A DNA stretch of 48,530 bases from Candidatus Daviesbacteria bacterium (GTDB taxonomy: Bacteria > Patescibacteriota > Microgenomatia > Daviesbacterales > UBA10151), in the NCBI GenBank assembly GCA_016176465.1, contig JACOXD010000009.1:1-48530 (forward strand), in the 5' to 3' direction. The notes beneath the pieces were generated by a model that saw nothing but the letters and a program-made list of their open reading frames with translations, did not search any database and was not told the origin of the DNA. The position numbers and the translations under genes were made by a program. Below are positions 891-28,143 of the stretch, piece by piece (the stretch's first letter is position 1; each line of letters opens with the position of its first letter).

Positions 891-958
891 ATCTTTATTG
901 AATTTTCTATAGATAGAAGTGTGCGAAAGATAAAAGATGTGAGAATATAAATGGAAGA

Positions 959-994
959 GGTGACAAATAAGAGCTATAGCAATATATTGTCACC
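959..994. repeat. 36-bp dyad site U1, upstream of PaaX/Cas2-like gene 1
   Basis: ggtgacaa..gctatagc..ttgtcacc; arms and core are centred on 976.5. Confidence 0.85.
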
Positions 995-1035
995 CTATGA
1001 AATTAGTGTTATTTTAAAGGTATGAATTTAAAGTT

Positions 1036-1590
1036 ATGAGCAAACTACTGAATCCAACCGCTAAGGAAACCCTTAAATTGATAGGTCTTGGAAGTTTGGT
1101 CATTGCTTCCTTTGCAGCTCCTGGTTTACCACTTGCCTTTAACTTTGTTTCTAAAGAATGGAAAAAGTATAAGCGAAAGGAATTGGGTAGAATAATAAAA
1201 CGTTTTACTGAACAAGAAGTAGTTAGCTTTAGAGAAGAGAACGGAAAACAAGTTATTGGGTTAACTGAAAAAGGTAGGAGTAGACTATTATCTTATGATT
1301 TTGAGAATCTCCAACTTAAATCTAAAAGAAGAGATGGATTATTTAGAGTGCTGGTTTTTGATATTCCTGAAAATAAGAAAAAGAACAGAGAATTATTTAG
1401 GCAAAAGCTAAAAGAATTAGGTTTTATCAGGATGCAAGATAGTGTGTTTGTATCTGCTTTTCCTTGTAAAGATGAAATAGATTTTATTTGTAACTATCTT
1501 GGAATCTCTCGACACGTCACATTATTTTCCATTAGAAAAATTGAAAGAGGAGAAGAATTAATTTTTAAAAAATCTCATATGAAAGCATAA
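1036..1590 (+). CDS. PaaX-like protein (wHTH plus Cas2-like ferredoxin fold), copy 1
   Basis: LTEKG wing; DGLFRVLVFDIPE, LKELGFIRMQDSVFV; paralog at 19982. Confidence 0.8.
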   Translation: MSKLLNPTAKETLKLIGLGSLVIASFAAPGLPLAFNFVSKEWKKYKRKELGRIIKRFTEQEVVSFREENGKQVIGLTEKGRSRLLSYDFENLQLKSKRRDGLFRVLVFDIPENKKKNRELFRQKLKELGFIRMQDSVFVSAFPCKDEIDFICNYLGISRHVTLFSIRKIERGEELIFKKSHMKA

Positions 1591-1627
1591 CTTGTTGGTG
1601 GATAATTTGATTATTTAATTTTTAAAG

Positions 1628-1663
1628 TGATACAAAGATAAGCTATAGCATTTTTGTGTATCA
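1628..1663. repeat. 36-bp dyad site D1, downstream of PaaX/Cas2-like gene 1
   Basis: tgataca..gctatagc..tgtatca centred on 1645.5; 23/36 identical to U1 with the same core. Confidence 0.85.
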
Positions 1664-1722
1664 TATAGAAATTAGGATGATATAATAAAAATGCCAAAAG
1701 AAAATATGGGCTTTAAAAACTG

Positions 1723-2130
1723 ATGAACTATATTCAAATAATCCTCAATGGTTTTAGCCAAGTTATGTTTCAAAAAAATGCAATGCTTGGAATTTTGATG
1801 ATTTTAGGATTACTAATTGCATCTCCCCAAACCTTCGTCTTAGCTTTACTTGGAAATATTATCACTACATTTACCGGATCTTTATTGGGGGTAGAAAGAA
1901 ATGCTTTGGATGCTGGGTTTGCAGGATATAATGGGGTTTTAATTGGAGCTGGAATATCTTTTTATATTAAAGATTTTAGTATGGCATTTCTACTTACTAT
2001 TTTAGGCTCAATTATCGTCTCTATTTTATTTTATCTACTTTTTAAAAATAATATACCACCTCTTGCAGCCCCCTTTGTTTTAATTACCTGGGGAATTTTA
2101 ATAGCCTTGAAATTTATTAAATTAAATTAA
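1723..2130 (+). CDS. Urea transporter (UT) family protein, single repeat (half size)
   Basis: GFSQVMFQ.N, G..GYNGVLIG, PPLAAPFVL motifs; hydrophobic; 135 aa. Confidence 0.75.
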   Translation: MNYIQIILNGFSQVMFQKNAMLGILMILGLLIASPQTFVLALLGNIITTFTGSLLGVERNALDAGFAGYNGVLIGAGISFYIKDFSMAFLLTILGSIIVSILFYLLFKNNIPPLAAPFVLITWGILIALKFIKLN

Positions 2131-2132
2131 TT

Positions 2133-2633
2133 ATGTCAGCAATTGAGGGTCAACCAAAATTAATGAAAGATGTCCAAAGAATAGATGGACCTCGGGAACA
2201 AGTTATACAAACTGATGAAGATTTAGACAGAATAGTAGAGGAGCCTTTAAGACCAATAATTAGGGCGCTGTTAGATAAAGGAATAGATGGAGTTATAGAA
2301 ACAAGTGCTAATCCAGAGAGAGCTGATGCTGCCTGGATTTATCTAGACCCAGATAAATTATCACCAGAAAATGATGAAGTCCTAACAGATATACAATATG
2401 ACCCTGACTATGGATTACATGAAGATCAAACAGGAGTGTTGGTTGAACATAAGGAGATGAAAGGACATGATAGTTATTATGGAAGGTTTGTATGGAGCAT
2501 ATACACAGACTTCTTACCTACTGAGCCAGTTGGTGCAGTTACATCCAGAATTGCTAAAGTAACAAACCAACTAAAACCTCAAGGTTCTTCCTTACTTAGC
2601 GCGCCAGCGGCGCCCCACCCCGAACAAACATAG
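2133..2633 (+). CDS. Hypothetical acidic protein
   Basis: 166-aa ORF 2 nt after the previous stop; no motif recognised. Confidence 0.6.
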   Translation: MSAIEGQPKLMKDVQRIDGPREQVIQTDEDLDRIVEEPLRPIIRALLDKGIDGVIETSANPERADAAWIYLDPDKLSPENDEVLTDIQYDPDYGLHEDQTGVLVEHKEMKGHDSYYGRFVWSIYTDFLPTEPVGAVTSRIAKVTNQLKPQGSSLLSAPAAPHPEQT

Positions 2634-3837
2634 TTAATCTTAGATCAGCCATAAGCTTATTTAATAAACCCCTGTATAATTCTTGATCATAGGGAGTAGA
2701 GTACCACCCACTATCAAACTTTCTTACGACTGCAGTTTTTCCAAGTAGCCTCTCTATCCCTTCTCTTTCTACAGGATCATCAGGAAGTTTGGTTGTTATA
2801 ATATTTATTAGAGCAAAAATAGGATATTCCTTTTGCCAACCTGATGAGAGTTGAGCAATATTGTGATATTTTCGCGTAGAATAAGGATCATCCAGCGAAT
2901 GCACTAATACTGAGATGGCATCATCATCAACAGTAACAATGGCTGGAGAATAATTTTCTGAAGGACTAAGTCCGATAATTTCGGGAATATAATGATAAAG
3001 CCTGTACCAATTTGTAGATGGAACAATTTTTAAAACATCTGAATCTGATGGGACCTGCATTTTCTCAAAGATATCCGCTATGGAAGTTGGATGAACTCCC
3101 ACTGGGAAAAATCCGGCAAATCTAGAGGCTTGTGCTGGAATTTCAAATCTATCAGGAGTAGTTATTATCACATTTAGCCTTGCAGTTCTTTCAACATCAA
3201 ACCCTTGCTGTCCTTCAGGAAATGCATTTCTAACTTTATCTGCTACTTCTTTTTTCTTGGCTTTAGCTTTTTGAGAAGTTCTTTTAACAAAAGATTCTAC
3301 GGTCTCACTGGGATCAATAGGTGCCTCATTCAACCAAAGTTGAAGTTGTCCCAGATATATATTCCAAGGAGCAATCTCTTCTTGTTCTCCTTCCTGAGTT
3401 TCTTCTGCTTCTTCAACTACCTCCACAACTGATGGAGGCATATTAAATTCATTAGGACCAACCACTACAGGTGTGTAAGTTCCCATCCTTGAAAACCTTA
3501 CTTCTGAAGTAGATAAAGTAAATTTGGGTTTACCTTCCTCATCAAGCTCCACAATAGAGGCAAATAATCCATACTTATCTGGAGTTTTGCCTTCACCCCT
3601 ATCTTCTCTTTTACTGATACATATTAAACGTCTTGTGTCTGGGTCTAGTATGTAGATTGGATGCTCAGGCATTAAAGTTTCAGGGGGAGTTTCTAATCTT
3701 TCTCTGGTAATTCTTTCAATTGCAGCCCCTGCCACTAATTTTAGTGAGGTTCTGATTGGGGACTGTGCAGCCACAACAAGAGGACCAGGAGTAAACCCTG
3801 GTCTTCTTTGTAAAGCGTTTTCATCATCTCGATTCAT
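2596..3837 (-). CDS. Hypothetical protein
   Basis: 413-aa ORF; no motif recognised. Confidence 0.7.
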   Translation of the reverse strand: MNRDDENALQRRPGFTPGPLVVAAQSPIRTSLKLVAGAAIERITRERLETPPETLMPEHPIYILDPDTRRLICISKREDRGEGKTPDKYGLFASIVELDEEGKPKFTLSTSEVRFSRMGTYTPVVVGPNEFNMPPSVVEVVEEAEETQEGEQEEIAPWNIYLGQLQLWLNEAPIDPSETVESFVKRTSQKAKAKKKEVADKVRNAFPEGQQGFDVERTARLNVIITTPDRFEIPAQASRFAGFFPVGVHPTSIADIFEKMQVPSDSDVLKIVPSTNWYRLYHYIPEIIGLSPSENYSPAIVTVDDDAISVLVHSLDDPYSTRKYHNIAQLSSGWQKEYPIFALINIITTKLPDDPVEREGIERLLGKTAVVRKFDSGWYSTPYDQELYRGLLNKLMADLRLTMFVRGGAPLAR

Positions 3838-4001
3838 AGAGAACGATCATACCTCAACTATAGGATTAAATCAATAGTTTCTGAATTGATTAATAATTAT
3901 TCTTAAGCTAATCTGTTAAAAATGGATATCCAAATTAGAGAGTATAAAAACTTGGATAAAAAGATTTTACTTAAATTAATTGATGGAAAAACTAAATAGA
4001 G

Positions 4002-12613: not shown

Positions 12614-13043
12614 AATCCAAGAAGATCTAAAACAAGCTCAACTAGATAGAAACGAACTTAAGGTTTCTACCTTAAGACTTTTATTATCTGAGGTTAATAA
12701 TGCTAAAATCCAAAAAGGTCAAGAGTTATCTGATGAGGAAATTACAGGAGTTATCCAGAAAGAGATTAAAAAAAGAAAAGAATCTATTGAAAGTTTTAGA
12801 AAAGGAGCAAGGGAAGATTTAGCTTTAAAAGAAGAAGCAGAGGCAAAAGTCTTGGAAAGCTACCTGCCAACTCAATTATCAGATGAGGAGTTGACTAAAA
12901 TAATAGATTTAGCTATAAATGAAGTAGGCGCAAATTCTATAGCAGATATGGGTAAAGTAATAGGCAAGGTCATGAGTCAAGTTTCAGGTAAGGCAGATGG
13001 TGGAAGAGTAAGTAATTTAGTAAAACAGAAGTTGTCATCCTGA
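12603..13043 (+). CDS. GatB/YqeY domain protein
   Basis: KEIKKRKESIESF, YLPTQLS, DMGKVIG, GKADG. Confidence 0.92.
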   Translation: MQNKIQEDLKQAQLDRNELKVSTLRLLLSEVNNAKIQKGQELSDEEITGVIQKEIKKRKESIESFRKGAREDLALKEEAEAKVLESYLPTQLSDEELTKIIDLAINEVGANSIADMGKVIGKVMSQVSGKADGGRVSNLVKQKLSS

Positions 13044-13110
13044 ACGCAAGTGAAGGATCTCAAGATCTAGATTCTTCCTCCCCTTTGGGGGCCCGGTTTC
13101 AGAATGACAA
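13032..13110. repeat. Family A palindromic element that supplies the yqeY stop codon
   Basis: ttgtcatcctgaa...ttcagaatgacaa; near-identical to the cysS copy at 25627. Confidence 0.9.
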
Positions 13111-13124
13111 TAATATTTATAAAA

Positions 13125-14456: not shown

Positions 14457-16124
14457 ATGGTTTTTTATAGAAAATACCGCCCTCAATCACTTAATGAACT
14501 AATTGGCCAAGAGCAGGTCAAGCTAACCCTCCAAAAAGCCTTTGATTCTCAAAAACTCTCTCATGCTTATTTATTTACTGGTCCTAAAGGAACTGGTAAA
14601 ACTTCTACAGCCAGGATTCTAGCTAAAATGGTTAATTGTGAGGGAGAAAAAATTGTTCCCTGTAATAAATGCTCCAGCTGTATTTCCATAACAGATGGAT
14701 CCAATTTGGACGTAATAGAAATTGATGCGGCTTCAAATAGAGGAATAGATGATATTAGGGACCTAAGAGAAAAAATTAAGCTTGCTCCAAGCTCTGCTAA
14801 TAAAAAAGTTTACATTATAGATGAAGTTCATATGTTATCTCCCGAAGCTTTTAATGCCCTACTTAAGACTTTAGAGGAACCCCCTTCCCATGTATTATTT
14901 ATATTAGCAACTACTGAATTGCATAAAATTCCTCCAACTATTTTATCCCGAGCACAAAAAATAGACTTTAAACAAGCAAGTACTCCAGAGCTTGTTGAAG
15001 CGTTAAAAAAAGTAGCAAATGGAGAAAAACTAAAGATAGAAGATAAAGCTTTGGAGCTTTTAGCTAAAAAAAGCGATGGATCTTTTAGGGATGGATTAAA
15101 ACTGCTAGATCAGCTTGCTTCAGGAGGCACTGATATTACCTCACTACAAGTTGAGGAAACTCTAAAAAGTTCTAATTTTGAAAGTATGGTGGAGCTTTTA
15201 TATGCAATTTCAAACAAGAGAAGCTCCAATGCTTTAAATATATGTTTGGAACAAATTGAGAAAGGAATAAATATTAGAGAATATACACTTGGAATTTTAG
15301 ATTTAATCCATGCCTTATTACTTATTAAAAATGACCTTAAAAATAAAGTATTAGAAGAATTTGGCTCTGAAAAGTTGGAAAAAATTAGTAAACTATCTGA
15401 TGGGTTTGAGATAAGGGATTTAATTAAATTGGCTGATAATTTTCAAAAAAGCTTAGAAAAAATGAAAGCTGTCAGTATCACTTCACTGCCTTTAGAAATT
15501 GCGGTGATTGAGAGCTCTCAAGCAGAAGTAGTAACTCCTGTCACAGTGAACACAGCCCCTCATGTCATTCTGAGCGAAAGCGAAGAATCTAGATTAGATC
15601 CTTCTGGTCCGGTGGACACTCAGGATGACAAAAGAAAGTCCTCCTACGTCAAGGTCATCGACTCTGAGGCCGAGCCTCAGGTCTTCGATTCCGAGGTCTC
15701 TCAGACTCGAGGAGCTCACACCCGAAGGGATTACAAACAAAAACCTTCCATATCCGCTATGAAAGCCTCTTCGGGAGATTTGGCAACTTTATATGATAAG
15801 TGGAATTATATTTTGGAAACAGTTAAACCTTATAATTATTCTTTGGAGGCAATGTTAAGGTTGGTAAAAATTTTAGAATGTAATCAAGAAGAGGTCATAT
15901 TTGAGGTTCCTTATTCTTTTCACCAAAGGATATTAGAAGCACCAAAAAGTAGAACTTTACTTGAATCTGTTCTAACAGAGGTTTTGGGAAGATCTATGAA
16001 GGTATCAACTGTTTTAGGTAAACGCGAAGTTCAAACTGAGGATATTGCCAACATTGAAGTCGCAGCTGATGATGAAATAATTAAAATTGCTGCAGAAATT
16101 TTTAACTCAGAATCGGTTAATTAA
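14457..16124 (+). CDS. dnaX: DNA polymerase III subunit gamma/tau
   Basis: YRKYRP, GPKGTGKT, EIDAASNRG, IIDEVHML, LLKTLEEPP. Confidence 0.97.
   Translation: MVFYRKYRPQSLNELIGQEQVKLTLQKAFDSQKLSHAYLFTGPKGTGKTSTARILAKMVNCEGEKIVPCNKCSSCISITDGSNLDVIEIDAASNRGIDDIRDLREKIKLAPSSANKKVYIIDEVHMLSPEAFNALLKTLEEPPSHVLFILATTELHKIPPTILSRAQKIDFKQASTPELVEALKKVANGEKLKIEDKALELLAKKSDGSFRDGLKLLDQLASGGTDITSLQVEETLKSSNFESMVELLYAISNKRSSNALNICLEQIEKGINIREYTLGILDLIHALLLIKNDLKNKVLEEFGSEKLEKISKLSDGFEIRDLIKLADNFQKSLEKMKAVSITSLPLEIAVIESSQAEVVTPVTVNTAPHVILSESEESRLDPSGPVDTQDDKRKSSYVKVIDSEAEPQVFDSEVSQTRGAHTRRDYKQKPSISAMKASSGDLATLYDKWNYILETVKPYNYSLEAMLRLVKILECNQEEVIFEVPYSFHQRILEAPKSRTLLESVLTEVLGRSMKVSTVLGKREVQTEDIANIEVAADDEIIKIAAEIFNSESVN
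15563..15630. repeat. Family A element in frame in the dnaX linker
   Basis: tgtcattctgag...ctcaggatgaca; encodes VILSESEESRLDPSGPVDTQDD. Confidence 0.9.
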
Positions 16125-16179
16125 CTTTAAAATCCTCCTTGACACAAATTAATCCTTTTAGTTAAAGTGATCTCTGTTT

Positions 16180-17499
16180 ATGGCAGACTTAAAGAAAGTA
16201 GACCCTCAAGTTTTTGAATTAATCAAAGAAGAGGAAAAAAGACAAAGAGAAGTTTTAGAGATGATAGCATCTGAAAACTATGCTTCAAAAGCAGTAATGG
16301 AGGCATTAGGTTCTGTTTTTACCAATAAATACTCAGAAGGCTTCCCTAAAAAAAGATACTACCAAGGCAACGCTGTTGCAGATAAAATAGAAATTTTAGC
16401 TACTGAGAGAGCCCAAAAATTATTTGGGGTTCCATACGTTAATGTTCAACCTCTATCAGGTTCTCCTGCTAACTCAATAGTTTATCTTAGTTTGCTGGAA
16501 TATAAAGATAAATTAATGGGACTATCCAGAGATTTTGGAGGACACATTACTCATGGAGGCCCACTTTCTTTATCAGCTAGATTTTTTACCCCTATCCATT
16601 ATGAATTAGGTAAAGATAATATGTTAGATTTTGAGGCAATTGAAAAATTAGCTATAAAAGAAAAGCCAAAATTAATTATTTGTGGATTTACAGCTTATCC
16701 AAGGATTATAGATTTTAAAAAATTTGCAAGCATAGCTGATAAAGTTGGGGCTTATTTAATGGCTGATATTGCCCATATTGCAGGGTTAATTGTAGCAGGG
16801 GTACATCCATCACCCATTCTTTATGCCCATATTATTACCACTACCACCCATAAAACTTTAAGAGGACCAAGGGGGGCAATGATTATGGTAACTAAAAAAG
16901 GTCTTAAAAAAGATCCTGATTTACCTAAAAAAATAGAAACAGCAGTAATCCCGGGAATGCAAGGAGGCCCTCATGATAACCAAACAGCAGCAATTGCAGT
17001 TGCATTAAAAGAAGCTGCAACCCCTGCGTTTAAAAAATACTCAGCCCAAATTGTTAAAAATGCTAAAAAATTAGCTAGTGAGTTAATAAAATTTAAGTTT
17101 AATTTAGTCTCAGGTGGGACAGACAATCATTTAATATTAATAGATTTAAGAAATAAAAAAGCTAATGGGGCAGCAGCAGCGCTAGCGCTAGAGCTAGCAG
17201 GAATTGTTTTAAATAAAAATGGTGTGCCATTTGACAGCTTACCTCCTTATTGGACATCAGGTATAAGGCTTGGAACTCCTGCAATAACTACTAGAGGAAT
17301 GAAGGAAAAAGAAATGGTAAAAATTGCTAAATGGATTAATGAGGCGGTTGATGAGGTATCAGGTGAAGAGATGCCTGAAGATAAAGAGTCAAGATCTGCT
17401 TATTGGAAAGAGTTTAGAAATAAAATAAAAAGTAATAAAAAATTAGCCAGTATAGCTAAAGAAGTAAAAGCGTTATGCGCTAAATTTCCTGTACCTTAA
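16180..17499 (+). CDS. glyA: Serine hydroxymethyltransferase
   Basis: IASENY, NKYSEG, TTTTHKTLRGPRG, GIRLGTPA. Confidence 0.98.
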   Translation: MADLKKVDPQVFELIKEEEKRQREVLEMIASENYASKAVMEALGSVFTNKYSEGFPKKRYYQGNAVADKIEILATERAQKLFGVPYVNVQPLSGSPANSIVYLSLLEYKDKLMGLSRDFGGHITHGGPLSLSARFFTPIHYELGKDNMLDFEAIEKLAIKEKPKLIICGFTAYPRIIDFKKFASIADKVGAYLMADIAHIAGLIVAGVHPSPILYAHIITTTTHKTLRGPRGAMIMVTKKGLKKDPDLPKKIETAVIPGMQGGPHDNQTAAIAVALKEAATPAFKKYSAQIVKNAKKLASELIKFKFNLVSGGTDNHLILIDLRNKKANGAAAALALELAGIVLNKNGVPFDSLPPYWTSGIRLGTPAITTRGMKEKEMVKIAKWINEAVDEVSGEEMPEDKESRSAYWKEFRNKIKSNKKLASIAKEVKALCAKFPVP

Positions 17500-17768
17500 A
17501 GTTTTGGAGGATTTGGGGCCGGCAAGACTACATCTACTGTTGAGCCTTCAGGTCTATGATTAACAATAATAGCTGTGGCTGGGATACCTCTTCTTGAAAG
17601 TTCTTGAAGAATAGCTGCATTTCTATCTGCTCTATTAAGAGAATCTTGGGCGTCTCCTTCAGATCTTGCCCCATGAACAATTCCCGTAACTGCATCCCTT
17701 GGTAAGGATTCATCGGATCGAGCTATGTGAACTATTGGTCCAGCGCGCTCTGCTTCTATTCTTTCCAT
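17496..17768 (-). CDS. Hypothetical protein
   Basis: ORF fills the glyA-folD gap; TGtTATACT precedes ATG 17768. Confidence 0.5.
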   Translation of the reverse strand: MERIEAERAGPIVHIARSDESLPRDAVTGIVHGARSEGDAQDSLNRADRNAAILQELSRRGIPATAIIVNHRPEGSTVDVVLPAPNPPKL

Positions 17769-17842
17769 AGATTCGAAGAAGTATAACATCTAAATATACT
17801 ATGTCAAATCGATTTAGTTTAGTTGTATTATAAAAACTAGTT

Positions 17843-18724
17843 ATGAAAGTATCAGGTAGAGATTTGGCAGATAAAATTTTAGAAAAATTAAAGCTAGAGA
17901 TTAAAGGTAAAAATCTAACTCTCTGTTTGGCGATAATTTTAGCAAGTAATGATCCAGCTCCTAAAATGTATACCCAAAGAAAAATAAATGTGGCGGGAGA
18001 AATAGGGATTAAAGCAACTTTATATGAATTTTCAGAAAACCAAGGACAAGATTGTTTTGAAACTATCCAACAGTTAAATGAAGATCAAAATATTCATGGG
18101 ATAATTGTTCAGCAACCAATGCATACTGGTTGGGATTTCCAAAAATATATTCAAGTAGTTTCTTCAAAAAAAGATGTAGATGGTTTTAAAGAGGATTCTC
18201 CATATAAGGAAGCAACAGCACTGGGGGTTTGGGAGATGTTATCTGAGTTTGGGAGAATTGAGGGTTTCAAATCAACTGATGAATTTTTAGAGGGGAAAAA
18301 AATAGTAGTTTTAGGAAAGGGTTTAACAGCAGGAAAACCCACAATTAATTTACTAACAGAAAAAGGTTTTCCACCTGAAGTAATAGATTCTAAAACTGAA
18401 AATCCAAATCAGATTATTAAAAATGCAGATGTAGTAATTTCTGCAACAGGCAAAAAAAATATTATTAATGGGGGAAATATAAAAAAGGGAAGCTTTGTAA
18501 TAGGGATAGGAGTTGGGAAGGAAGAAAAAGATGGAGAGGAAAGGATTTTTGGGGATATTAATGAGGAGGAAATAAAAGATATTGCTAAGTTATATTGTCC
18601 GACAATAGGAGGAATTGGACCACTAACTATAGCTTGTTTACTAAAGAACGTAATGGAAGCAAGCTTCACGGCTCAGGGTCCTGTCAGCTCGGTATCTCAA
18701 AGCCGTTCCTCAACTCAAGCTTGA
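17843..18724 (+). CDS. folD: Methylenetetrahydrofolate dehydrogenase/cyclohydrolase
   Basis: HGIIVQQP, KDVDGF, GGIGPLTIA. Confidence 0.92.
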   Translation: MKVSGRDLADKILEKLKLEIKGKNLTLCLAIILASNDPAPKMYTQRKINVAGEIGIKATLYEFSENQGQDCFETIQQLNEDQNIHGIIVQQPMHTGWDFQKYIQVVSSKKDVDGFKEDSPYKEATALGVWEMLSEFGRIEGFKSTDEFLEGKKIVVLGKGLTAGKPTINLLTEKGFPPEVIDSKTENPNQIIKNADVVISATGKKNIINGGNIKKGSFVIGIGVGKEEKDGEERIFGDINEEEIKDIAKLYCPTIGGIGPLTIACLLKNVMEASFTAQGPVSSVSQSRSSTQA

Positions 18725-18791
18725 TTTTCTAAAAATCAATGCAAGTCTGTGGTACGTTTTGAGACCTCTCCTCCCTGCCACCCACCTCGCC
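18670..18791. repeat. About 120-nt GC-rich imperfect hairpin across the folD stop
   Basis: ttgatttt/aaaatcaa inner stem, tctcaaa/tttgaga middle stem, gggt/accc outer stem. Confidence 0.6.
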
Positions 18792-18794
18792 TAC

Positions 18795-18830
18795 TTGACT
18801 CTAGACTCTAGCGACTAGTCACTATATAAT
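18795..18830 (+). promoter_or_regulatory. Sigma70-like promoter with heptamer repeats in the spacer
   Basis: TTGACT 18795, TAGACT 18802, TATAAT 18825; ATG 7 nt later. Confidence 0.6.
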
Positions 18831-18837
18831 ACCAACC

Positions 18838-19110
18838 ATGGGTTTAATGGATACATTTAAACAGCTTGGGGATCTCAAAAAGATGAGAGATCAAGCTATG
18901 GAAGTGCAAAAAAAATTATCAGGAATAAAAATAACTGTAGAGCATAGAGGGGTAACAGTTATAATGACTGCAGATCAAAAAGTTGTTTCTATTTCAGGTG
19001 AGTTAGATCATGAGAAAATTGCAGAAGCTGTTAATGAAGGATTAAAACAATCTCAAAAAGTTGCAGCTGAAGAAATGAAATCTTTAATGGGTGGCGTGCC
19101 AGGAATGTAG
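18838..19110 (+). CDS. ybaB: YbaB/EbfC nucleoid-associated protein
   Basis: QAMEVQKKL, IAEAVNEGL; lies between dnaX and recR. Confidence 0.85.
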   Translation: MGLMDTFKQLGDLKKMRDQAMEVQKKLSGIKITVEHRGVTVIMTADQKVVSISGELDHEKIAEAVNEGLKQSQKVAAEEMKSLMGGVPGM

Positions 19111-19833
19111 CTACCACTGGCAGTCTGCTGCAAAATTTACATTTCCTAATAAATTATTTAAAGTAGGAGTCCCATTGGTAAATGGTGCTGAGTAAAATCT
19201 CATTTCATAATTTGAGCCTAGTGTGCTACTAAGTTGTAAATTTCCCTGGCCTCTAATTCCTCCAACATGATCATTATATGCTCCTCCCACATCTACTGAG
19301 TTGGGATAATTACCTGACTGATAAAGGAAATAAAATGGTGAAGGATTTCCTCCTGATATGATTCCCCAAACCCCATCATCATATGCTTTAGTTTTAACAG
19401 AACCATGGAATTCAATATCAAAAGTACTTTCTCCGTGATAACAGCTAACGGTTAGGGTCACATGATCTCCGTTATAAGCATAAAAAGGTGCTGAACTTGG
19501 AGTAGGAGTGGGGGTGGGAGAAGGAGAGGGTGCAGGGGTTGAATTAGTCGAGTTATTATTTTGGCTCGTAGAAGAATTATTGTTAGCTGATGGGGAGGGA
19601 CTTGGATTAGACTTAGAAGTTGCGCTGGGTGAAGGGGAAGTTTTTAGAGATAAATTATTTGTAGGTGATGGAGAAGGTGAGGATTTTTGTTTAGTAGATG
19701 AAGTTGCTTGAAAACCTTTGTCAGGAGTTGGCTGCCCTCCATTGAGAGGTATTTTATTTAATATAAAAAACCCACTTCCCAATAGCAATAAGCATAACAA
19801 CAATTGGAGCAACACCCTTTTGATTGTTATCAA
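19111..19833 (-). CDS. Membrane-anchored Ser/Pro/Thr-rich hypothetical protein
   Basis: N-terminal hydrophobic helix, SPSP linker, beta-rich C-terminus. Confidence 0.65.
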   Translation of the reverse strand: MITIKRVLLQLLLCLLLLGSGFFILNKIPLNGGQPTPDKGFQATSSTKQKSSPSPSPTNNLSLKTSPSPSATSKSNPSPSPSANNNSSTSQNNNSTNSTPAPSPSPTPTPTPSSAPFYAYNGDHVTLTVSCYHGESTFDIEFHGSVKTKAYDDGVWGIISGGNPSPFYFLYQSGNYPNSVDVGGAYNDHVGGIRGQGNLQLSSTLGSNYEMRFYSAPFTNGTPTLNNLLGNVNFAADCQW

Positions 19834-19916
19834 GACTGAGTGTAGTCGAATTGGGCATTAAATTAAGAATAGGTTAGTGTTTAAATAATATCAACAATAA
19901 TAATCGATATTACCCC

Positions 19917-19952
19917 GGTAACAAATTAATCTACGTGGTTTAAATTGTTACA
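19917..19952. repeat. 36-bp dyad site U2, upstream of PaaX/Cas2-like gene 2
   Basis: ggtaacaaattaatctacgtggtttaaattgttaca. Confidence 0.88.
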
Positions 19953-19981
19953 TAGGATGGTAAAATGAATTACAAATAATT

Positions 19982-20563
19982 GTGACTGAGAAACAAAAAG
20001 ATATAGCTAAAAATATTATATTGGCTCTTGGGATAGTTGGAGCAGTATCTATGATAATGATAGCCCCTGGACTAGCTAAAGCGATACCCTTACTTGCAAA
20101 AATTGATGTTAGACGAATCAACCAAGAAATAAAAAGGCTAAATAAACGAGGACTTGTGGAGATTATTAAAAGAAAAAATAAGGTACCTTTAATTAAACTG
20201 ACTAAAGAAGGAGAAAAGAAATTATCAAGATACCAAATCGATAAGTTAGAAATTGAGAGGCCAAAAAAATGGGATGGAAAATGGAGACTGGTGGTGTTTG
20301 ATATCCCTATAACTAAAAACTATTCCAGAGCAGTACTTCGCAAAAAGATGAAAAATCTTGGGTTTTATAAATTACAGTCGAGTGTGTTTGTCCACCCCTT
20401 TCCATGTTTTGAAGTATTGAAATTTATAAGGGATTATTTTGGAGTTAGCAAAGAGGTGGAGTATATGGAAGTTAATAGTTTGGAAAGTCAAGACATGTTA
20501 ATATCTTACTTTTTTACGAAACAAATTAATCTACGTAGAACAAATTGTCACAATTTCAGATAA
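19982..20563 (+). CDS. PaaX-like protein (wHTH plus Cas2-like fold), copy 2
   Basis: LTKEG; WDGKWRLVVFDIP, LGFYKLQSSVFVHPFPC. Confidence 0.82.
   Translation: MTEKQKDIAKNIILALGIVGAVSMIMIAPGLAKAIPLLAKIDVRRINQEIKRLNKRGLVEIIKRKNKVPLIKLTKEGEKKLSRYQIDKLEIERPKKWDGKWRLVVFDIPITKNYSRAVLRKKMKNLGFYKLQSSVFVHPFPCFEVLKFIRDYFGVSKEVEYMEVNSLESQDMLISYFFTKQINLRRTNCHNFR
20517..20552. repeat. 36-bp dyad site D2, overlapping the 3' end of gene 2
   Basis: cgaaacaaattaatctacgtagaacaaattgtcaca; 29/36 identical to U2, direct orientation. Confidence 0.88.
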
Positions 20564-20611
20564 CATATATTTGTATAGTGCATAATAAGAAGAATTTGAT
20601 AGAATGCTACC

Positions 20612-21208
20612 ATGGCCACTATCCCCAAAGTTGTTAGAGATTTAATAGAAAGTTTTGAAAGGTTACCGGGTATAGGGCCTAAAACTGCGCAAAGATTAAC
20701 TTACTATTTACTCCATGCTCCAAAAGAAGAAGCAAAAGCGCTAGCTGAGGCTGCAGTTGCTTTAAAAGAAAAAACTGTGATTTGTTCAATTTGTTTTAAT
20801 ATCTCTGAGAAAGATCCTTGTGAAATAGATACAGATCCAAGTAGGGATAAATCTATTATAGCAGTGGTGGAAGATCCATTAGATGTTTTGGCTTTAGAGA
20901 AAGCAAATTTTAAAGGGCTTTATCATGTATTACACGGTGCAATTTCTCCTTTAGAAAATATTGGGCCAGAAGAATTAAAAATTAGGGAGTTATTACCTAG
21001 GTTAAAAGATAGAGCAGTTAAAGAAATTATTTTAGCAACAAACCCTACAATGGAGGGTGAGGCAACTGCAATGTATATAGATAGATTAATTAGACCCTTA
21101 GGAATAAAAGTAACCAGAATTGCCAGAGGCTTACCTGTTGGGGGAGATTTAGAATATGCGGATGAAACCACTTTATCAAGAGCCCTAGAAGGTCGTAAAG
21201 AATATTAA
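20612..21208 (+). CDS. recR: Recombination mediator RecR
   Basis: [36 protein letters not shown]. Confidence 0.98.
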
Positions 21209-21706
21209 ATGGATGAAGAAATTGATATTGTAGATGAGCTGGGAAATATTCTATATTCCATCTCCAAAATAGAGGCTCATAAAAAAGGATTACTTCATAA
21301 AACTGTTATTGCAGAAGTAATAGATTCAAAGGGTAATATTTATTTAGTAAAACAATCCTCAGATAGGCAAGATGCAGGGCAATATGTATCCCCAGTGGGT
21401 GGACATGTTAAAAAGGGAGAAACTGAGGAGGAAGCACTAGTAAGGGAGGTTTTAGAGGAAATAGGTTTAACTGATTTTGAATATGAGTTACTTGGAAGAG
21501 AAATTTTTAATAGGGAAGTTTTAGGTAGAATTGAAAACCACTTTTTTATTGTTTTTAAAATTACAACAGATAAAGAATTTATTTTAGGAGATGAGGCAGA
21601 TGATTTTGAAAAATTTAACAAAGAACAACTAATAAAAGAAGTAATGATAAATCCCAAGAAATTTGGTAATGTCTTTCACTTTGTCTTTGAAAAATTTTAC
21701 AAATAA
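21209..21706 (+). CDS. NUDIX hydrolase (IPP isomerase-like)
   Basis: GGHVKKGETEEEALVREVLEEIG Nudix box; AHKKGLLH. Confidence 0.88.
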   Translation: MDEEIDIVDELGNILYSISKIEAHKKGLLHKTVIAEVIDSKGNIYLVKQSSDRQDAGQYVSPVGGHVKKGETEEEALVREVLEEIGLTDFEYELLGREIFNREVLGRIENHFFIVFKITTDKEFILGDEADDFEKFNKEQLIKEVMINPKKFGNVFHFVFEKFYK

Positions 21707-21709
21707 TAA

Positions 21710-23005
21710 ATGCTAAAAACTTTTACTCTAAAAAATGGGATCAAGGTTGCTACTTATAACCTTCCTAATGTCAAATCTATTCACATTAGAATAAGTTCTA
21801 AAGGTGGATCTATTGTTGAGAGTAAAGTAAATAATGGTGTTGCTCATTTTATGGAACATATTTTAGTTCAAGGTACTCCTTCTTATCCTACAGTTGAGGA
21901 TTTATCTTTATTTATAGAAAGTTTAGCAGGTAACTATAATGCTCAAACTGAAAAACTTTTAATTAGTTTCTTTATAACAACTCCTGCAACTCATATTGAG
22001 GATGCTATCAAAATAACCAAGGAAGTATTTTTTGATCCTTTATTTGCCAAAGATGCAATTGAGCGGGAGCGGGGAGCGCTACTTAATGAAATAAAACAAA
22101 ACATGGATTCTCACTATTTTGAATTAAATAGATATTTTTGGGAGACAAGAGTCAAGAAGGAACACCCCCTAACGCTTTTTACAGGCGGGGCATTAGATGT
22201 AGTTTCAAAATTAACAAGAGATGACTTAGTAAATTATTGGCAAAAGTATTTTCTATCTAAAAATAGCTATCTTTTAATTTCTGGTAATTTTGAAGAGAAA
22301 AAATTAATCAAACTTTTGGAAAAATACTTTGAAAGTATAGATTCTAAAAAGGTCTTTAGTGGATTTCCTAAAATGTCTGATTTAGATTTATCTGAAAAAG
22401 AAGTTTTTATCAGGTTTGATCAAAAGCTTGGGATTAATTATATAGATATAACTTGGCCCTCCATAAAAATGGAAGACACTTTAAAATTAAGGTTGATTCA
22501 AAATTTGGCTCTAACTATTTTAGGTGGTTTAAGAAACTCCAGATTGTTTAAACTACTACGCTCTCAGAGAGGTTTGGTTTACTCCATTGGATCTAGTGCT
22601 TCAATTTTGCCTGGCTTGGGACTAGGGTATATCTCCTCACAGGTGACTAGTGAGAACTTAGTTGAAGTATTAGATCTTACTTTTAAAGAACTTTTTACTT
22701 TTGTTCATAATGGACCAACTGATGAAGAATTAAGTTTTGCTAAGAATTATTTATCAAACCAATGGTTTATGGCATTTGATCACCCATCAGTTATAGCTGA
22801 GTGGATTGAGAATGATTTGCACTGGAATGACAAAATAAGGTTGCCTGAGCAGTATTTAGAGATACTGAAAGAAATTAAAAAAGAAGATCTACTTAAGTTA
22901 ATGCAAAAATACTGGGATTTTGCTAAGCTCAATTTAGTAATCCAAGGACAAATTGAAGATTCTAAAGAAAATAGAGAAAAATATATGGAGTATTTAAATT
23001 TGTAA
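21710..23005 (+). CDS. M16 (pitrilysin/insulinase) zinc peptidase
   Basis: GVAHFMEH (HxxEH), SRLF.LR..RGLVY. Confidence 0.92.
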   Translation: MLKTFTLKNGIKVATYNLPNVKSIHIRISSKGGSIVESKVNNGVAHFMEHILVQGTPSYPTVEDLSLFIESLAGNYNAQTEKLLISFFITTPATHIEDAIKITKEVFFDPLFAKDAIERERGALLNEIKQNMDSHYFELNRYFWETRVKKEHPLTLFTGGALDVVSKLTRDDLVNYWQKYFLSKNSYLLISGNFEEKKLIKLLEKYFESIDSKKVFSGFPKMSDLDLSEKEVFIRFDQKLGINYIDITWPSIKMEDTLKLRLIQNLALTILGGLRNSRLFKLLRSQRGLVYSIGSSASILPGLGLGYISSQVTSENLVEVLDLTFKELFTFVHNGPTDEELSFAKNYLSNQWFMAFDHPSVIAEWIENDLHWNDKIRLPEQYLEILKEIKKEDLLKLMQKYWDFAKLNLVIQGQIEDSKENREKYMEYLNL

Positions 23006-23008
23006 ATT

Positions 23009-23434
23009 ATGGGAGATGGAGCAAAGGGTGCGATAAAAGGAGTAATGAAAGATTTGGGAGAGGCTGTTGTTAAACCTGTGGCTAATGAGGCATCCACCAT
23101 AATTAATGAAACCATCCAGTCAATTTCTGGTGGTGGAAGTACTCAAAATCCTCAGGACGAACATAAGAAAAAAGAGGAAGAACAAAAATTAAAAGTTGAA
23201 GAAGCAAATAAAAAAAGAAACATTGAGATGTTTTTAAGGCAACTGCAAGAACAAGAACAAAAATTAAAAGCTACCCGCCAAAAGGAAGCTCAAGAAAAAC
23301 AAGCAAAAGAACAAGAGGAGCAACAAAAAAAACAAGTTAAACAATTTAAAGTATTTGAACAACAAAAGAAAAAACAAGATATTAATTTAGCAACTAAACA
23401 GCGAAAGACAGAAATAAAAAGAGGAAGTGCCTAA
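23009..23434 (+). CDS. Lys/Gln/Glu-rich coiled-coil hypothetical protein
   Basis: 141-aa ORF in operon spacing. Confidence 0.6.
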   Translation: MGDGAKGAIKGVMKDLGEAVVKPVANEASTIINETIQSISGGGSTQNPQDEHKKKEEEQKLKVEEANKKRNIEMFLRQLQEQEQKLKATRQKEAQEKQAKEQEEQQKKQVKQFKVFEQQKKKQDINLATKQRKTEIKRGSA

Positions 23435-23470
23435 TTGGCTTATTAATCCCTTATTTGATAAAATCCTAAC

Positions 23471-23740
23471 ATGGAAAAGGCAGATGATCCAGAACTTGAA
23501 CTATATAAAGAAATAGGGGCTTTACCTTCAAATCAACAAAGGCTTATTAGTGCTTTATCAAGCCATCTATTAGAACGAGATGTACATGAAAGTTTTGCAA
23601 CTGATCCTTTAAAATATCAGGCATTAAAAAAACTTCTAATTTCCAGAGGGTTTGATGAGAAAGGTTTAGTGCTGGCAATGCGAGTTTTTGGGCTAGAAGA
23701 AATTTCTGCGGAACCACCTGATAGACCAAATTTGCCCTAA
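23471..23740 (+). CDS. Small hypothetical protein, possible Fic antitoxin
   Basis: Own TGaTAAAAT promoter; ends 3 nt before the fic gene; SHLLER. Confidence 0.55.
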   Translation: MEKADDPELELYKEIGALPSNQQRLISALSSHLLERDVHESFATDPLKYQALKKLLISRGFDEKGLVLAMRVFGLEEISAEPPDRPNLP

Positions 23741-23743
23741 AAT

Positions 23744-24598
23744 ATGGTTAAAGCTCCTGAAGAAATATTGTCTGGTGCGCTACGAGCAAATGAATTTGAT
23801 CCTGATATATTTCATTCCTTCCAGGAAATAGGCAATGTTTACCGATGTGTTACTATTGAAGACTCTTGGCTAAAAGATAGAGTTACGCCCGGCATCCTTT
23901 ATATTTCCGAACTTCACGCTAAATTATTTGATAGAGTTCCAACCTATTACAAAAAAGGTCTACTCCCCCTTCCTCCGGGAACTTTTAGAAGAGAAGATAT
24001 CTATCTATCCAGCCAACCCCCAAACTTTTACTCTCGGGGACTGGATGTATCTCCGTTAATGGACGAATATGCCCGAGAGCTTGATAAAATAATAGAATCT
24101 CTACCACGAAGCCCCCTGGATAAAATTGAAGATATAATCCATCAAGGTGCTTGGAGTTATTATGTCTTTGAAAGGATCCACCCGTTTTTGGATGGGAATG
24201 GGAGAATTGGCAGAATGATTCTAAGAAGAATTCTAAGGGGAACCGGGTTAAAAGATATTATCTTTAGTGCTGCTTCAACTCCCAAAGGCTCCAAAAGGAG
24301 TGAAGAAGAACGGAACAAACATTTAGATGCAATGAGTAGGGTTAGCTCAACTGGCAATTTAGCTCATTTAGAATTATATATTGCTAGACAACTACTCAAA
24401 GTATATCCAAATTCAGGTGAAAACAAAGGGGTTGTGGCCGAATTACAAGGTTTGATAGATAAAAAAACAATGGAGGTGGAAACTCAGACAGCAAGATTGC
24501 CTTTGGAGAAGATTTGGCCAAAATTTGGAGATATTGATATTCATGGCAGCGAGGATGATTTAAAAACTCCAGCTGAAACAAGCTCTATTAGTAATTAA
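23744..24598 (+). CDS. Fic-domain protein
   Basis: HPFLDGNGRIGR canonical Fic motif. Confidence 0.92.
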   Translation: MVKAPEEILSGALRANEFDPDIFHSFQEIGNVYRCVTIEDSWLKDRVTPGILYISELHAKLFDRVPTYYKKGLLPLPPGTFRREDIYLSSQPPNFYSRGLDVSPLMDEYARELDKIIESLPRSPLDKIEDIIHQGAWSYYVFERIHPFLDGNGRIGRMILRRILRGTGLKDIIFSAASTPKGSKRSEEERNKHLDAMSRVSSTGNLAHLELYIARQLLKVYPNSGENKGVVAELQGLIDKKTMEVETQTARLPLEKIWPKFGDIDIHGSEDDLKTPAETSSISN

Positions 24599-24607
24599 AC
24601 TTGATTA

Positions 24608-26029
24608 ATGCTCAAATTATTTAACACTCTTTCTAAAAAAATAGAAGACTTTAATCCTCTAACTTCTGAGCAAGTGGGTCTTTATACTTGTGGCCCCACT
24701 GTGTATGATTTTATGCACATTGGCAACTTAAGGACTTTTTTATTTTCTGATACTTTATATCGGGTCTTAAGCGCTAATGGATATAAAGTAAAGTTTATCC
24801 AAAATATTACTGATATTGATGACAAAATTATTAAAAAAGCAAAAGAAGAAAACATACCATTAAGCGAAATAACTAATAAATACACAAAATTTTATTTTGA
24901 AGATTTAAAAAAACTAAATATCACTCCAGCAGATGTTTACCCAAAAGCAACTGAGCACGTTGGGAAGATGGCCAAGTATATTGAGAAATTAGTAGAAAAA
25001 GGGCTAGCTTATGTAGAAGAGGATGGATCAGTTTATTTTGATATTTCTAAATTTGAAGATTATGGAAAACTATCAGGAGTAGAGGGTCGGACCCTCAAAA
25101 CCGGAACAAGGATTTTATCTCGCGCAGCGAGAGAGCTTCGCTCATCTGATGAGTACAATAAAGATAATATTCAAGATTTTGCGCTTTGGAAGGCTGTTGA
25201 AGCAGATGAGAAAGTAGGCTATGATTCTCCGTGGGGAAGAGGAAGACCAGGATGGCATATTGAGTGTTCAGTTATGAGTCAGGAATATTTAGGGGATACT
25301 TTTGATATTCACGCAGGAGGAGTGGATTTAATTTTTCCCCATCATGAAAATGAGATTGCTCAGTCCGAAGGTTATACTGGTAAAAAATTTGTAAATTTCT
25401 TTTTACATGGTGAACATATTTTGGTTAATGGAGCCAAGATGAGCAAATCTTTAAAAAACTTTTACACACTAAAAGATTTAGAAAAGAAAGGGTCGGACCC
25501 TATGGCCTATAGGTACTTAGTTTTAACTGCTCACTATAGAGATAAACTAAATTTTACTTGGGAAAGTTTGCAAGCTGCAAGCAATGCTTTAAATAAACTA
25601 AGGGAGGAGATAAGGGGGTGGCCTAATGTCATCCTGAATGCAAATAAAGGATCTCAAGATTTAGATTCTTCTCCCCTCTGGGGGCCTTCGGCTCAGAATG
25701 ACAATTATTATCAAAGATTCCTAGATGTTTTAAATAATGATTTAAATACACCCCAAGCTTTAGCAGTTCTCCATGAGATGATTTCATCAAATAGTCCAAT
25801 ATCTAACAAAGCTAAATCACTTCTAGAGATGGATAAAGTTTTAGGGTTAAAGTTAGATGAATATTTAGGAAAGAAATTAGAAATCCCTGAGAGGGTTAAA
25901 AAGTTAGTTGAGGAAAGAGAAGATGCAAGAAAGCAAGGCAATTTTGAAAAATCTGATGAACTTAGAAAAAAAATTATAGAGTTGGGTTTTGAAATAAAAG
26001 ATACCCCAAAGGGCCCCAAAATTACATAG
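24608..26029 (+). CDS. cysS: Cysteine--tRNA ligase
   Basis: CGPTVYD, HIGN, GRPGWHIECS, KMSKS. Confidence 0.98.
   Translation: MLKLFNTLSKKIEDFNPLTSEQVGLYTCGPTVYDFMHIGNLRTFLFSDTLYRVLSANGYKVKFIQNITDIDDKIIKKAKEENIPLSEITNKYTKFYFEDLKKLNITPADVYPKATEHVGKMAKYIEKLVEKGLAYVEEDGSVYFDISKFEDYGKLSGVEGRTLKTGTRILSRAARELRSSDEYNKDNIQDFALWKAVEADEKVGYDSPWGRGRPGWHIECSVMSQEYLGDTFDIHAGGVDLIFPHHENEIAQSEGYTGKKFVNFFLHGEHILVNGAKMSKSLKNFYTLKDLEKKGSDPMAYRYLVLTAHYRDKLNFTWESLQAASNALNKLREEIRGWPNVILNANKGSQDLDSSPLWGPSAQNDNYYQRFLDVLNNDLNTPQALAVLHEMISSNSPISNKAKSLLEMDKVLGLKLDEYLGKKLEIPERVKKLVEEREDARKQGNFEKSDELRKKIIELGFEIKDTPKGPKIT
25082..25096. repeat. Family E palindrome AGGGTCGGACCCT (copy 1, in cysS)
   Basis: gagggtcggaccctc; the same 13-mer occurs at 25489 and, reverse-complemented, at 36144. 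Confidence 0.75.
25489..25501. repeat. Family E palindrome (copy 2, in cysS)
   Basis: agggtcggaccct. Confidence 0.75.
25627..25703. repeat. Family A element in frame in cysS
   Basis: tgtcatcctgaa...tcagaatgaca; encodes VILNANKGSQDLDSSPLWGPSAQND. Confidence 0.9.
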
Positions 26030-26838: not shown

Positions 26839-28143
26839 ATGAATAATTCTCCTTTAGCAGATAGGATTAGACCCAAAAGTTTAGATCAATTAGTTGGCCA
26901 AAGACACATTCTTTCTCCTGATAAATTACTTTACAAAGCTATAAAATCAGGCAATATTTTCTCAATGATTTTTTGGGGACCACCAGGGGTTGGAAAGACA
27001 ACTTTGGCAAGAATAATAGCGAACGAGCTAAAAACAGAATTTTATGAATACTCCGCAGTAACAACTGGAATTGTGGAACTTAAAAAATTATTCGAATCTC
27101 TAAAAAATTCCATCCTCTTAAATCCACCCGTAGTTTTTATAGATGAAATCCACAGATTTAATAAAGCACAGCAAGATGCATTTTTGCCGTATGTAGAAAA
27201 CGGGACAATTATTTTAATAGGAGCAACAACAGAAAACCCTTCCTTTGAAGTTATTGGCCCACTCTTATCCAGAACAAGAGTATTTGTTTTAAATCAATTA
27301 TCAAATAAAGAGTTGGAAGAAATAATAAACAAAGCGCTTAAAGATAAGCGAAGCTTTCCTTCACTTAGCAGTGAACGTAAAGAATCTGGTTTAGGAAAAC
27401 TAAAAATAAAACTTAATAAAGATGCAAAAGATTTTTTAATTGAAGGGTCTAATGGAGATTCAAGAATTTTGTTAAATGCTTTGGAGGTAGCAGTTAATTC
27501 TGTCATCCTGAGGGCACGGGCCCCTTTTAGGGAGGAAGGATCTCAAAATTTAGATTCTTCTGGTCCACTGGACCATCAGAATGACAAGGTTGTGGTAATC
27601 AAAGAATTAATTGAAGAAGCTTTGCAGAAGCGCTCATTACTTTATGATAAAGCAGGAGATGAGCACTACAATACAATTTCAGCATTTATAAAATCTATGA
27701 GAGCATCACAAGTAGATTCTGCACTATATTATTTAGCCAGGATGGTAAATGCAGGAGAGGATCCTTTGTTTATTGCCAGAAGAATGGTTATTTTTGCCAG
27801 TGAGGATATTGGACAGGCAGCGCCTACAGCTTTGGTTGTAGCTAATGAAGTTTTTAGAGCTGTAGAGACAATTGGATATCCTGAGTGTCAAATTAATTTA
27901 GCCGCAGGTGTCGTTTATTTATGCAGCGCTAAAAAAGATAGAAGTTCATATGATGCATATTTTAAAGCGCTAGAAGATGTACAAAAATTTGGCAATTTAG
28001 AAATTCCCCTTAATATTAGAAACGCTCCTACAAAATTAATGAAAGATTTGGGTTACGGCAAAGGTTATGAAAAATATTCCAAAGAAGACTTACTTCCTGA
28101 AAAATTAAAAGGGAAAAAATATTATGCAAGCAAAAAGGAATAG
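26839..28143 (+). CDS. rarA: Replication-associated recombination protein A (MgsA/RarA AAA+ ATPase)
   Basis: PLADRIRP, GPPGVGKTT, DEIHRFNKAQQD, ISAFIKSMR, SEDIG. Confidence 0.96.
   Translation: MNNSPLADRIRPKSLDQLVGQRHILSPDKLLYKAIKSGNIFSMIFWGPPGVGKTTLARIIANELKTEFYEYSAVTTGIVELKKLFESLKNSILLNPPVVFIDEIHRFNKAQQDAFLPYVENGTIILIGATTENPSFEVIGPLLSRTRVFVLNQLSNKELEEIINKALKDKRSFPSLSSERKESGLGKLKIKLNKDAKDFLIEGSNGDSRILLNALEVAVNSVILRARAPFREEGSQNLDSSGPLDHQNDKVVVIKELIEEALQKRSLLYDKAGDEHYNTISAFIKSMRASQVDSALYYLARMVNAGEDPLFIARRMVIFASEDIGQAAPTALVVANEVFRAVETIGYPECQINLAAGVVYLCSAKKDRSSYDAYFKALEDVQKFGNLEIPLNIRNAPTKLMKDLGYGKGYEKYSKEDLLPEKLKGKKYYASKKE
27501..27586. repeat. Family A element in frame in rarA
   Basis: tgtcatcctgag...tcagaatgaca; encodes VILRARAPFREEGSQNLDSSGPLDHQND. 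Confidence 0.9.

Follow-up and report, generated by a model that had tools for sequence, protein, structure and literature searches.

A PaaX-like gene in a Daviesbacteria genome lies between two matching 36-bp palindromes and may form a self-regulating unit

We analysed a 48,530-nt stretch of the genome of a Candidatus Daviesbacteria bacterium, an ultra-small organism from groundwater (contig JACOXD010000009.1; referred to below as the window), in which the gene of a PaaX-like protein, P2, is enclosed by two copies of a 36-bp site. The P2 gene (19982..20563, plus strand) encodes 193 aa and was identified from its open reading frame (ORF), a PaaX_M domain, an AlphaFold2 (AF2) model and Foldseek matches as coding for a winged-helix plus Cas2-like protein. 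The upstream site, U2 (19917..19952), was recognised in the sequence and by a repeat search; the downstream copy, D2 (20517..20552), was recognised in the same ways and by a random-position control. The conserved gene ybaB/ebfC (18838..19110, plus strand; PF02575) lies upstream of the unit, and recR (20612..21208, plus strand; RecR Pfam domains) follows the P2 gene, with an extended -10-like box of its own, read by eye, ~45 bp past D2. A preliminary description of this DNA had placed the P2 cassette between ybaB and recR. The interval is correct, but the cassette is not alone in it: a 240-aa ORF (19111..19833, minus strand), divergent from P2, of low complexity and with a hydrophobic N-terminus, intervenes between ybaB and U2. 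No Pfam family was found in this ORF by a Pfam scan.

The source genome (G000; 1.07 Mb in 18 contigs, 35% G+C, 93.8% complete), of which the window is contig C12, contains four paralogs of this PaaX-like family, the other three being 63%, 35% and 33% identical to P2. One of them, paralog 1 (184 aa; 1036..1590, plus strand; 33-35% identical to P2 by sequence comparison), is located in the same window. Its sites were read from the sequence: U1 (959..994), with core GCTATAGC, has arms unlike those of every other copy, and D1 (1628..1663) is of a type dispersed through the genome.

Direct reading showed that U2 and D2 differ at 7 of 36 positions, in agreement with the earlier claim of direct repeats that are 29/36 identical and 600 bp apart, start to start. 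The repeat search also listed the pair as a family (33 nt, 85%, spacing 600). All four sites (U1, D1, U2 and D2) fit the template given in the preliminary description when their sequences are read directly. The symmetry drawn in that template was wrong, as the true layout is a 7-bp arm, 7-bp spacer, 8-bp core, 7-bp spacer and 7-bp arm, with every site itself a palindrome (in U2, 16 of 18 symmetric positions pair, read by eye). The cores do differ between the cassettes, being CTACGTGG in U2 and CTACGTAG in D2 versus GCTATAGC at paralog 1. The loose pattern ACAAA-N20-TGT matches exactly these four sites in the window but is not significant alone (4 matches against 2.35 expected, with at least 4 in 20 of 100 shuffles). 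The flank match of 29 of 36 nt between U2 and D2, on the other hand, was equalled at 5 of 3000 random genome positions with the same geometry (median 21, 99th percentile 25), so it is the pairing and not the loose pattern that gives the U2/D2 sites their statistical significance. The U1/D1 pair reached only 24/36, because the arms of these two sites differ.

As described earlier, the P2 ORF reads through D2. The homologous part of the protein stops at codon 179, and in six of 10 close homologs that were aligned the D arm opens with the TAA stop codon. In P2 this place, inside the left arm of D2, is taken by an AAA codon (20519..20521, plus strand), and one contig of sequencing run X5 (depth 2.6) has a T at 20519, which restores TAA. 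The 14-residue tail of P2 reflects the loss of this stop codon and is no feature in its own right.

Profile searches placed P2 close to PaaX and to Cas2. PaaX_M (PF20803) was found with an E-value of 5e-18, at 65.4 bits where the cut-off is 24, while the score with the PaaX equivalog model TIGR02277 was 35.3 bits against a cut-off of 264.55, and a search for PaaX_C returned nothing at E ≤ 1. The suggestion that these proteins are not ordinary PaaX repressors was therefore upheld, given the missing C-terminal domain and scores far under the TIGR02277 cut-off. Pfam CRISPR_Cas2 scored 23.0 bits on P2 (cut-off 23.8), and the Cas2 model TIGR01573 (cut-off 24.5) was exceeded by paralog 1 and P2 (32.2 and 25.8 bits) but not by the other two paralogs. 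PADLOC matched Cas2 models alone, and Pfam and NCBIfam profile scans detected no recombinase or transposase domain in P2.

The AF2 model of P2, built from 68 family sequences (mean predicted local distance difference test score 86.8), shows a winged helix at residues 3-73 (helices 3-19, 35-39 and 43-55; wing 59-73), followed by a linker helix and a ferredoxin-like domain at 101-179. With Foldseek, the sole match of the model at E ≤ 0.001 was E. coli PaaX (8a39, E 1.8e-6), and fold matches went to PaaX, MarR and PadR. The WDGKW motif is common to the P2 family and E. coli PaaX. The Cas2-type Asp that follows it in an FDIP motif is invariant across the 68 family sequences and lost in E. coli PaaX. 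Prediction of a P2 homodimer gave a score of 0.18 against a mark of 0.42, which is not evidence either way.

A family scan that took a single genome for each prokaryotic species detected at least 551 relatives. We kept the best 80 loci, most of which are titled as Patescibacteria groups and some as uncultured Gammaproteobacteria, Nanoarchaeota or Fibrobacteraceae. For each locus the best 30-nt match between the upstream and the downstream flank was determined, five loci being dropped as too short. A matched site pair (≥21/30) was found to flank the gene in 64 of the 75 testable loci, with a median flank match of 24 versus 18 in 532 control comparisons (control 99th percentile 21). Each flanking pair carries its own arms and its own palindromic core, specific to the locus. 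The idea that the sites match within a unit and differ between paralogs was thus borne out and extended to 64 of 75 loci; the U2/D2 observation is real and far more general than could be seen from the window.

A profile of the sites was obtained from these loci. Among 122 sites, symmetric positions pair with a frequency of 0.84-0.89 at the four core pairs; the value drops to ~0.5 over positions 5-10 and rises again to 0.75-0.87 over positions 11-17. Between U and D of the same gene (49 pairs) the profile is sharp and footprint-like: core identity was 0.93 and arm identity 0.87, falling to 0.68 in the spacers and to 0.35 outside the site, compared with 0.51, 0.34, 0.36 and 0.30, respectively, between unrelated loci. 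Since U-D identity falls to the between-locus background beyond +/-18 bp, the element is exactly 36 bp long. U centres lie 10-174 bp ahead of the start codons (as called in this analysis), D centres 6-113 bp past the stop (median near 27), and the two sites are 594-814 bp apart. A direct U/D orientation fitted better in 36 of 61 strong pairs, equally well in 7 and worse in 18, a modest bias. Among the 10 proteins of the P2 clade, which share 60-69% identity with P2, both the TAACA/TGTTA arms and a central ACGT are mostly kept, with variation in the outer core bases. As for the other paralogs of the source genome, the one on contig C9 has a good U site and a decayed D site; the sites of the one on contig C13 were read by eye. 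At one locus (L031), the U and D sites (2953-2990 and 3553-3590) have arms in common but different cores, GCTATAGC versus GCGGTCGC, so the core is not always matched within a unit.

We then compared where the two site types of the window occur. The P2-type site is present in the 1.07-Mb genome only as U2 and D2 (≤4 mismatches in 22 specified positions), whereas sites of the paralog-1 type (core GCTATAGC) occur at ~11 places. Beyond D1 these include eight copies with the same arms and one copy with a 6-bp spacer, U1 having different arms. They are mostly intergenic, in every orientation, and one lies between convergent genes (C1:140988). The expectation that every pair of sites would bracket a paralog thus held for the P2 type and failed for the paralog-1 type, which is scattered away from paralogs. 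By the reasoning of the preliminary description itself, such scatter indicates a regulon operator. Three other family members have their own site 3, 4 and 2 times in their genomes. The copy with the 6-bp left spacer (C11:32354-32389) lies 46 bp upstream of recO, by ORF reading; with recR behind D2, two RecFOR genes are therefore found behind sites of two paralogs. Two identical 36-bp sites 1380 bp apart (C1:22939-24354; L177:1440-2855) bracket a 123-aa ORF, a PIN_3 gene and an HTH_17 gene in the fusA-tuf interval, beside gpsA.

The pattern of the paralog-1 type was searched for in 96 family genomes and was multi-copy only in G000 (9 places) and in G001, a genome of another genus (12 places); two further genomes had 1-2 near-matches and a reversed control pattern had none. 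These are the two genomes with the closest paralog-1 homolog beside thyX. In G001 the sites lie at the same gene borders as in G000; their arms and core are preserved, and their spacers have diverged in part. This conservation between genera was observed directly at the methyltransferase-tatD border, behind murB, ahead of a MOSC-like gene and at the border of pyrF and a pyrD-like gene (names from reading translations, not from Pfam scans). After murB there is a solo site in G000 and a doublet in G001, whose copies are separated by 1.3 kb. In G001 the paralog-1 homolog (L152; contig C60, 671-1141) lacks the winged-helix half owing to a deletion from the U1 core to about codon 84; its downstream site and 11 further sites in the genome are intact. 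What remains of the U1 core is joined to the remainder of this gene, with an ATG directly after the core. No second family member was detected by a profile search of G001, which is 95% complete.

On balance, we consider it probable that P2 is a PaaX-type autorepressor with two private predicted operators that travel with its gene, U at the promoter and D at the stop codon as loop partner or roadblock. In the review PMC9493321, E. coli PaaX is described as binding TGATTC(N27)GAATCA, i.e. two 6-bp inverted arms 27 bp apart, and as repressing its own promoter by hindering RNA polymerase. The candidate sites here, with 7-bp arms and a 22-bp gap, match this layout of short inverted arms and a long spacer. 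Taken together, the fold, the site layout, the site pairs across the family, the U-D profile, the private and dispersed site sets and the conserved borders are as expected of paralog-specific operators of PaaX-type repressors, and a self-regulating unit fits better than a jumping gene.

We infer a mechanism in which the protein dimerises, binds its sites and acts as a repressor through looping or a roadblock. In analogy to PaaX, one dimer would put one winged helix on each 7-bp arm, ~29 bp centre to centre, and the palindromic 8-bp core at the dyad would confer specificity on each paralog. P2 would repress its own gene, and probably also the divergent 240-aa gene, through U2. This self-repression is proposed because U2 overlaps the predicted promoter: a promoter-like site with a TG-extended -10 (19939..19966, plus strand; consensus match only) has its -35 inside U2, and two divergent promoter-like sites, one on each strand, have -35 hexamers that overlap with U2. 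D2, abutting the stop codon, would serve as a second operator of the P2 gene itself, either looping to U2 over ~600 bp or blocking transcription that enters or leaves the unit, and it may also modulate recR. The gene and both sites would be inherited as one block whose arms and cores evolve fast, and we propose that paralogs therefore avoid cross-talk.

The family resembles PaaX of E. coli and Pseudomonas (PDB 8a39, 3l09) in having a winged helix followed by a Cas2-like central domain with WDGKW, and in an operator whose two short inverted arms stand far apart at its own promoter, where repression by PaaX is described in PMC9493321 and binding is predicted for the proteins analysed here. It differs in lacking the C-terminal ligand domain (~180 aa versus 316), in keeping the Cas2-type Asp, and in sites that add a palindromic 8-bp core and a second matched site past the stop codon. 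Predicted specificity also differs among nearly all homologs, with several paralogs per 1-Mb genome. No paa genes adjoin P2 or paralog 1 among the ORFs of 1-4000 and 15000-26000, as had been stated for phenylacetate genes; the neighbours found there are ybaB, recR, NUDIX, thyX and a urea-transporter fragment.

In the immunity regions of lambdoid phages, the repressor gene lies between the looping operator sets OL and OR. The units described here are alike in that a putative repressor gene is flanked by predicted operators of its own specificity and units would not cross-react. They are unlike in having a single site on each side, ~600 bp apart, in a chromosomal context and with an unrelated fold; looping would be our inference for them.

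Several observations weigh against an autorepressor of this type. Promoter-like sites in the region are at chance level (6 versus 4.3 +/- 2.0 in shuffles). Across the family, we found no -10 box at a constant offset from the sites and no helical phasing (9-12-bp periodicity) in the U-D distances. D is kept in 26 of 72 loci despite a convergent next ORF (crude ORF calls), including 10 strong pairs where the convergent ORF has ≥150 aa and lies no more than 125 bp away; retention of D in front of a convergent gene therefore makes it part of the gene's own unit and not the promoter site of the next gene. G001 retains 12 sites of the paralog-1 type, 11 of them without mismatch, yet no intact family member was detected there. 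Sites of this type also form doublets 1.4-2.5 kb apart, one in G000 and three in G001. In three of the four doublets the two copies have the same non-palindromic spacers or show a single-base difference, and in the third G001 doublet (C18) only the left spacers match; binding alone leaves this spacer identity unexplained. Finally, a catalytic role may exist, as judged from sequence, because the family keeps the Cas2 hallmark Asp that E. coli PaaX has lost. The loci with a convergent gene behind D, the G001 sites, the doublets and the murB difference together keep a duplicative or mobile reading alive.

According to such a reading, U and D would be recombination or insertion sites, and the gene would move with them as a unit by means of its Cas2-like protein or a host recombinase. 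We regard this as unlikely, even though the unit is compact and sharply bounded, with identity at background beyond +/-18 bp, direct orientation is favoured in 36 of the 61 strong pairs, and the Cas2-type Asp is invariant. Doublets of the paralog-1 type with identical non-palindromic spacers around accessory genes, and the solo murB site of G000 versus the doublet of G001, likewise speak for mobility. On the side of the protein, P2 has no recombinase or transposase domain, and Cas1 (PF01867) was not found in the 93.8%-complete G000, in a search whose control was positive in 7 of 14 reference genomes. On the side of the DNA, the positions next to the core, where a Cre/Xer-type recombinase would bind, are the least conserved, the cores are symmetric, and the U1/D1 pair does not consist of reciprocal hybrids of two parental sites. 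Mobility or excision, as put forward in the preliminary description, found no positive evidence at the P2 locus, and the paralog-1-type sites, scattered as they are, stay in place at gene borders between genera.

Recombinase sites such as lox, FRT and dif, and pdif modules, are palindromes of 34-36 bp with an 8-bp centre, in which conserved arms abut an asymmetric centre. The sites described here are similar in size and palindromy, they bracket a gene, and matched centres define partners; they differ in that the centre is symmetric and its flanks are the least conserved part, and no recombinase is linked to them.

The ybaB-recR interval was used for a presence/absence comparison. Of 61 family genomes, 59 had recR, and 30 loci were retrieved. 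ybaB lies upstream of recR in 28 of 29 loci of other genomes, with a P2 homolog between the two genes in G029 alone. A wider search added G003 and G044, in which the end of the gene is 66 bp and 1.1 kb, respectively, ahead of recR, so that a P2-clade copy precedes recR in four family genomes only (G000, G029, G003 and G044), a restricted distribution that favours mobility. The ybaB-recR gaps of 28 genomes measure 0-1196 bp (≤120 bp in 10 of 28), and several of the longer gaps contain unrelated small ORFs; that the unit occupies intervals with differing small genes among relatives, and that the fusA-tuf interval is variable too, is likewise as expected of a mobile cassette. The comparison itself did not reveal breakpoints at the sites, as the 27 intervals without the gene, all from other genera, show no solo site. 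In four loci (L089, L091, L094 and L109) the ybaB-recR gap holds a similar ~400-bp reverse-strand insert edged by short repeated words.

The tree of 10 P2-clade proteins is a star with none of its 8 inner branches supported, and gains and losses therefore cannot be separated, which gives the mobile cassette no help. No close relatives were found in metagenome contigs (9 loci, best 39% identity). Viral contigs, searched with a single peptide pattern, contained no relative, phage records gave no match, and plasmid records gave one weak match only, to a gene annotated as PaaX family regulator. A U2-D2 joint was not seen in contigs of four sequencing runs; contigs drop rare variants, so this does not demonstrate its absence.

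Somewhat less likely still, the gene-plus-two-sites units and the accessory doublets might form an undescribed class of autonomous DNA elements, in which a sequence-specific, Cas2-like protein would mark both ends of a segment with palindromes as long as CRISPR repeats and then insulate or silence it, or aid site duplication at insertion. If true, this class would be a free-living relative of the relationship between Cas2 and repeats, without Cas1. The family is similar to CRISPR Cas2 in that the C-terminal domain reaches the TIGR01573 cut-off in two of the four paralogs and the 36-bp flanking repeats, which are partly palindromic, have the length of CRISPR repeats. It is dissimilar in having one repeat pair around a gene and no array, and an N-terminally fused winged helix. 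The earlier statement that no CRISPR array is nearby agrees with the 20 largest repeat families of the window, none of which is an array; no genome-wide array search was made.

We give a slightly lower probability to the idea that the sites are bound by another factor, or have another DNA-level role (in chromosome organisation, or as centromere-like or boundary sites), with the PaaX-like gene as a frequent resident. The 12 sites of G001 in a genome without an intact family member would fit this, as would sites between convergent genes (C1:140988) and around accessory genes, and a profile search of solved structures gave weak matches to centromere-binding AspA and TubR (E 0.007-0.09). A common host factor would, however, leave unexplained that the arm and core of each homolog are matched only to its own flanks. 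Nor would it account for the P2-type site being found nowhere else in the genome, or for the paralog-1-type site being multi-copy only in the two genomes with the closest paralog-1 relatives beside thyX.

A role of the palindromes as RNA hairpins (terminators, attenuators or processing sites) is very unlikely, and we rejected it: U2 and U1 do form stable RNA folds (-8.2 and -10.6 kcal/mol; none of 200 shuffles as stable), but D2 does not (-0.8 kcal/mol, 147 of 200 shuffles as stable), no terminator-like site was found within 19700-20750, G:T versus A:C mismatches number 59/62 in U and 55/64 in D sites (122 sites) and thus show no G:U excess, the spacers pair in only about half of cases, and the core needs a loop to pair.

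To our knowledge, gene regulation in Patescibacteria (the candidate phyla radiation, CPR) is almost unstudied, and a literature search found no paper connecting PaaX-like proteins with Patescibacteria. If P2 and its relatives are autorepressors with paired operators, each family protein carries its presumptive binding site twice beside its gene, which would provide dozens of natural protein-site pairs for learning the recognition code of winged-helix/Cas2-like proteins and for building orthogonal repressors. It would also make the few regulons of these ultra-small bacteria predictable from their sequence. Both the persistence of the downstream site and the accessory doublets suggest looping, roadblock, insulation or site duplication, and we know of no description of such a function for PaaX.

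Two further features of the window were recorded. Right after D1, a 135-aa ORF (1723-2130) matches positions 1-130 of a 292-position urea transporter model and is short or truncated. An element of ~80 nt is present at 13033-13114, 25627-25708, 27536-27587 and 15594-15631, two copies being 80% identical and the others shorter pieces; it falls within long ORFs, including 14457-16124 and 24608-26029, and resembles a repeated in-frame insert.

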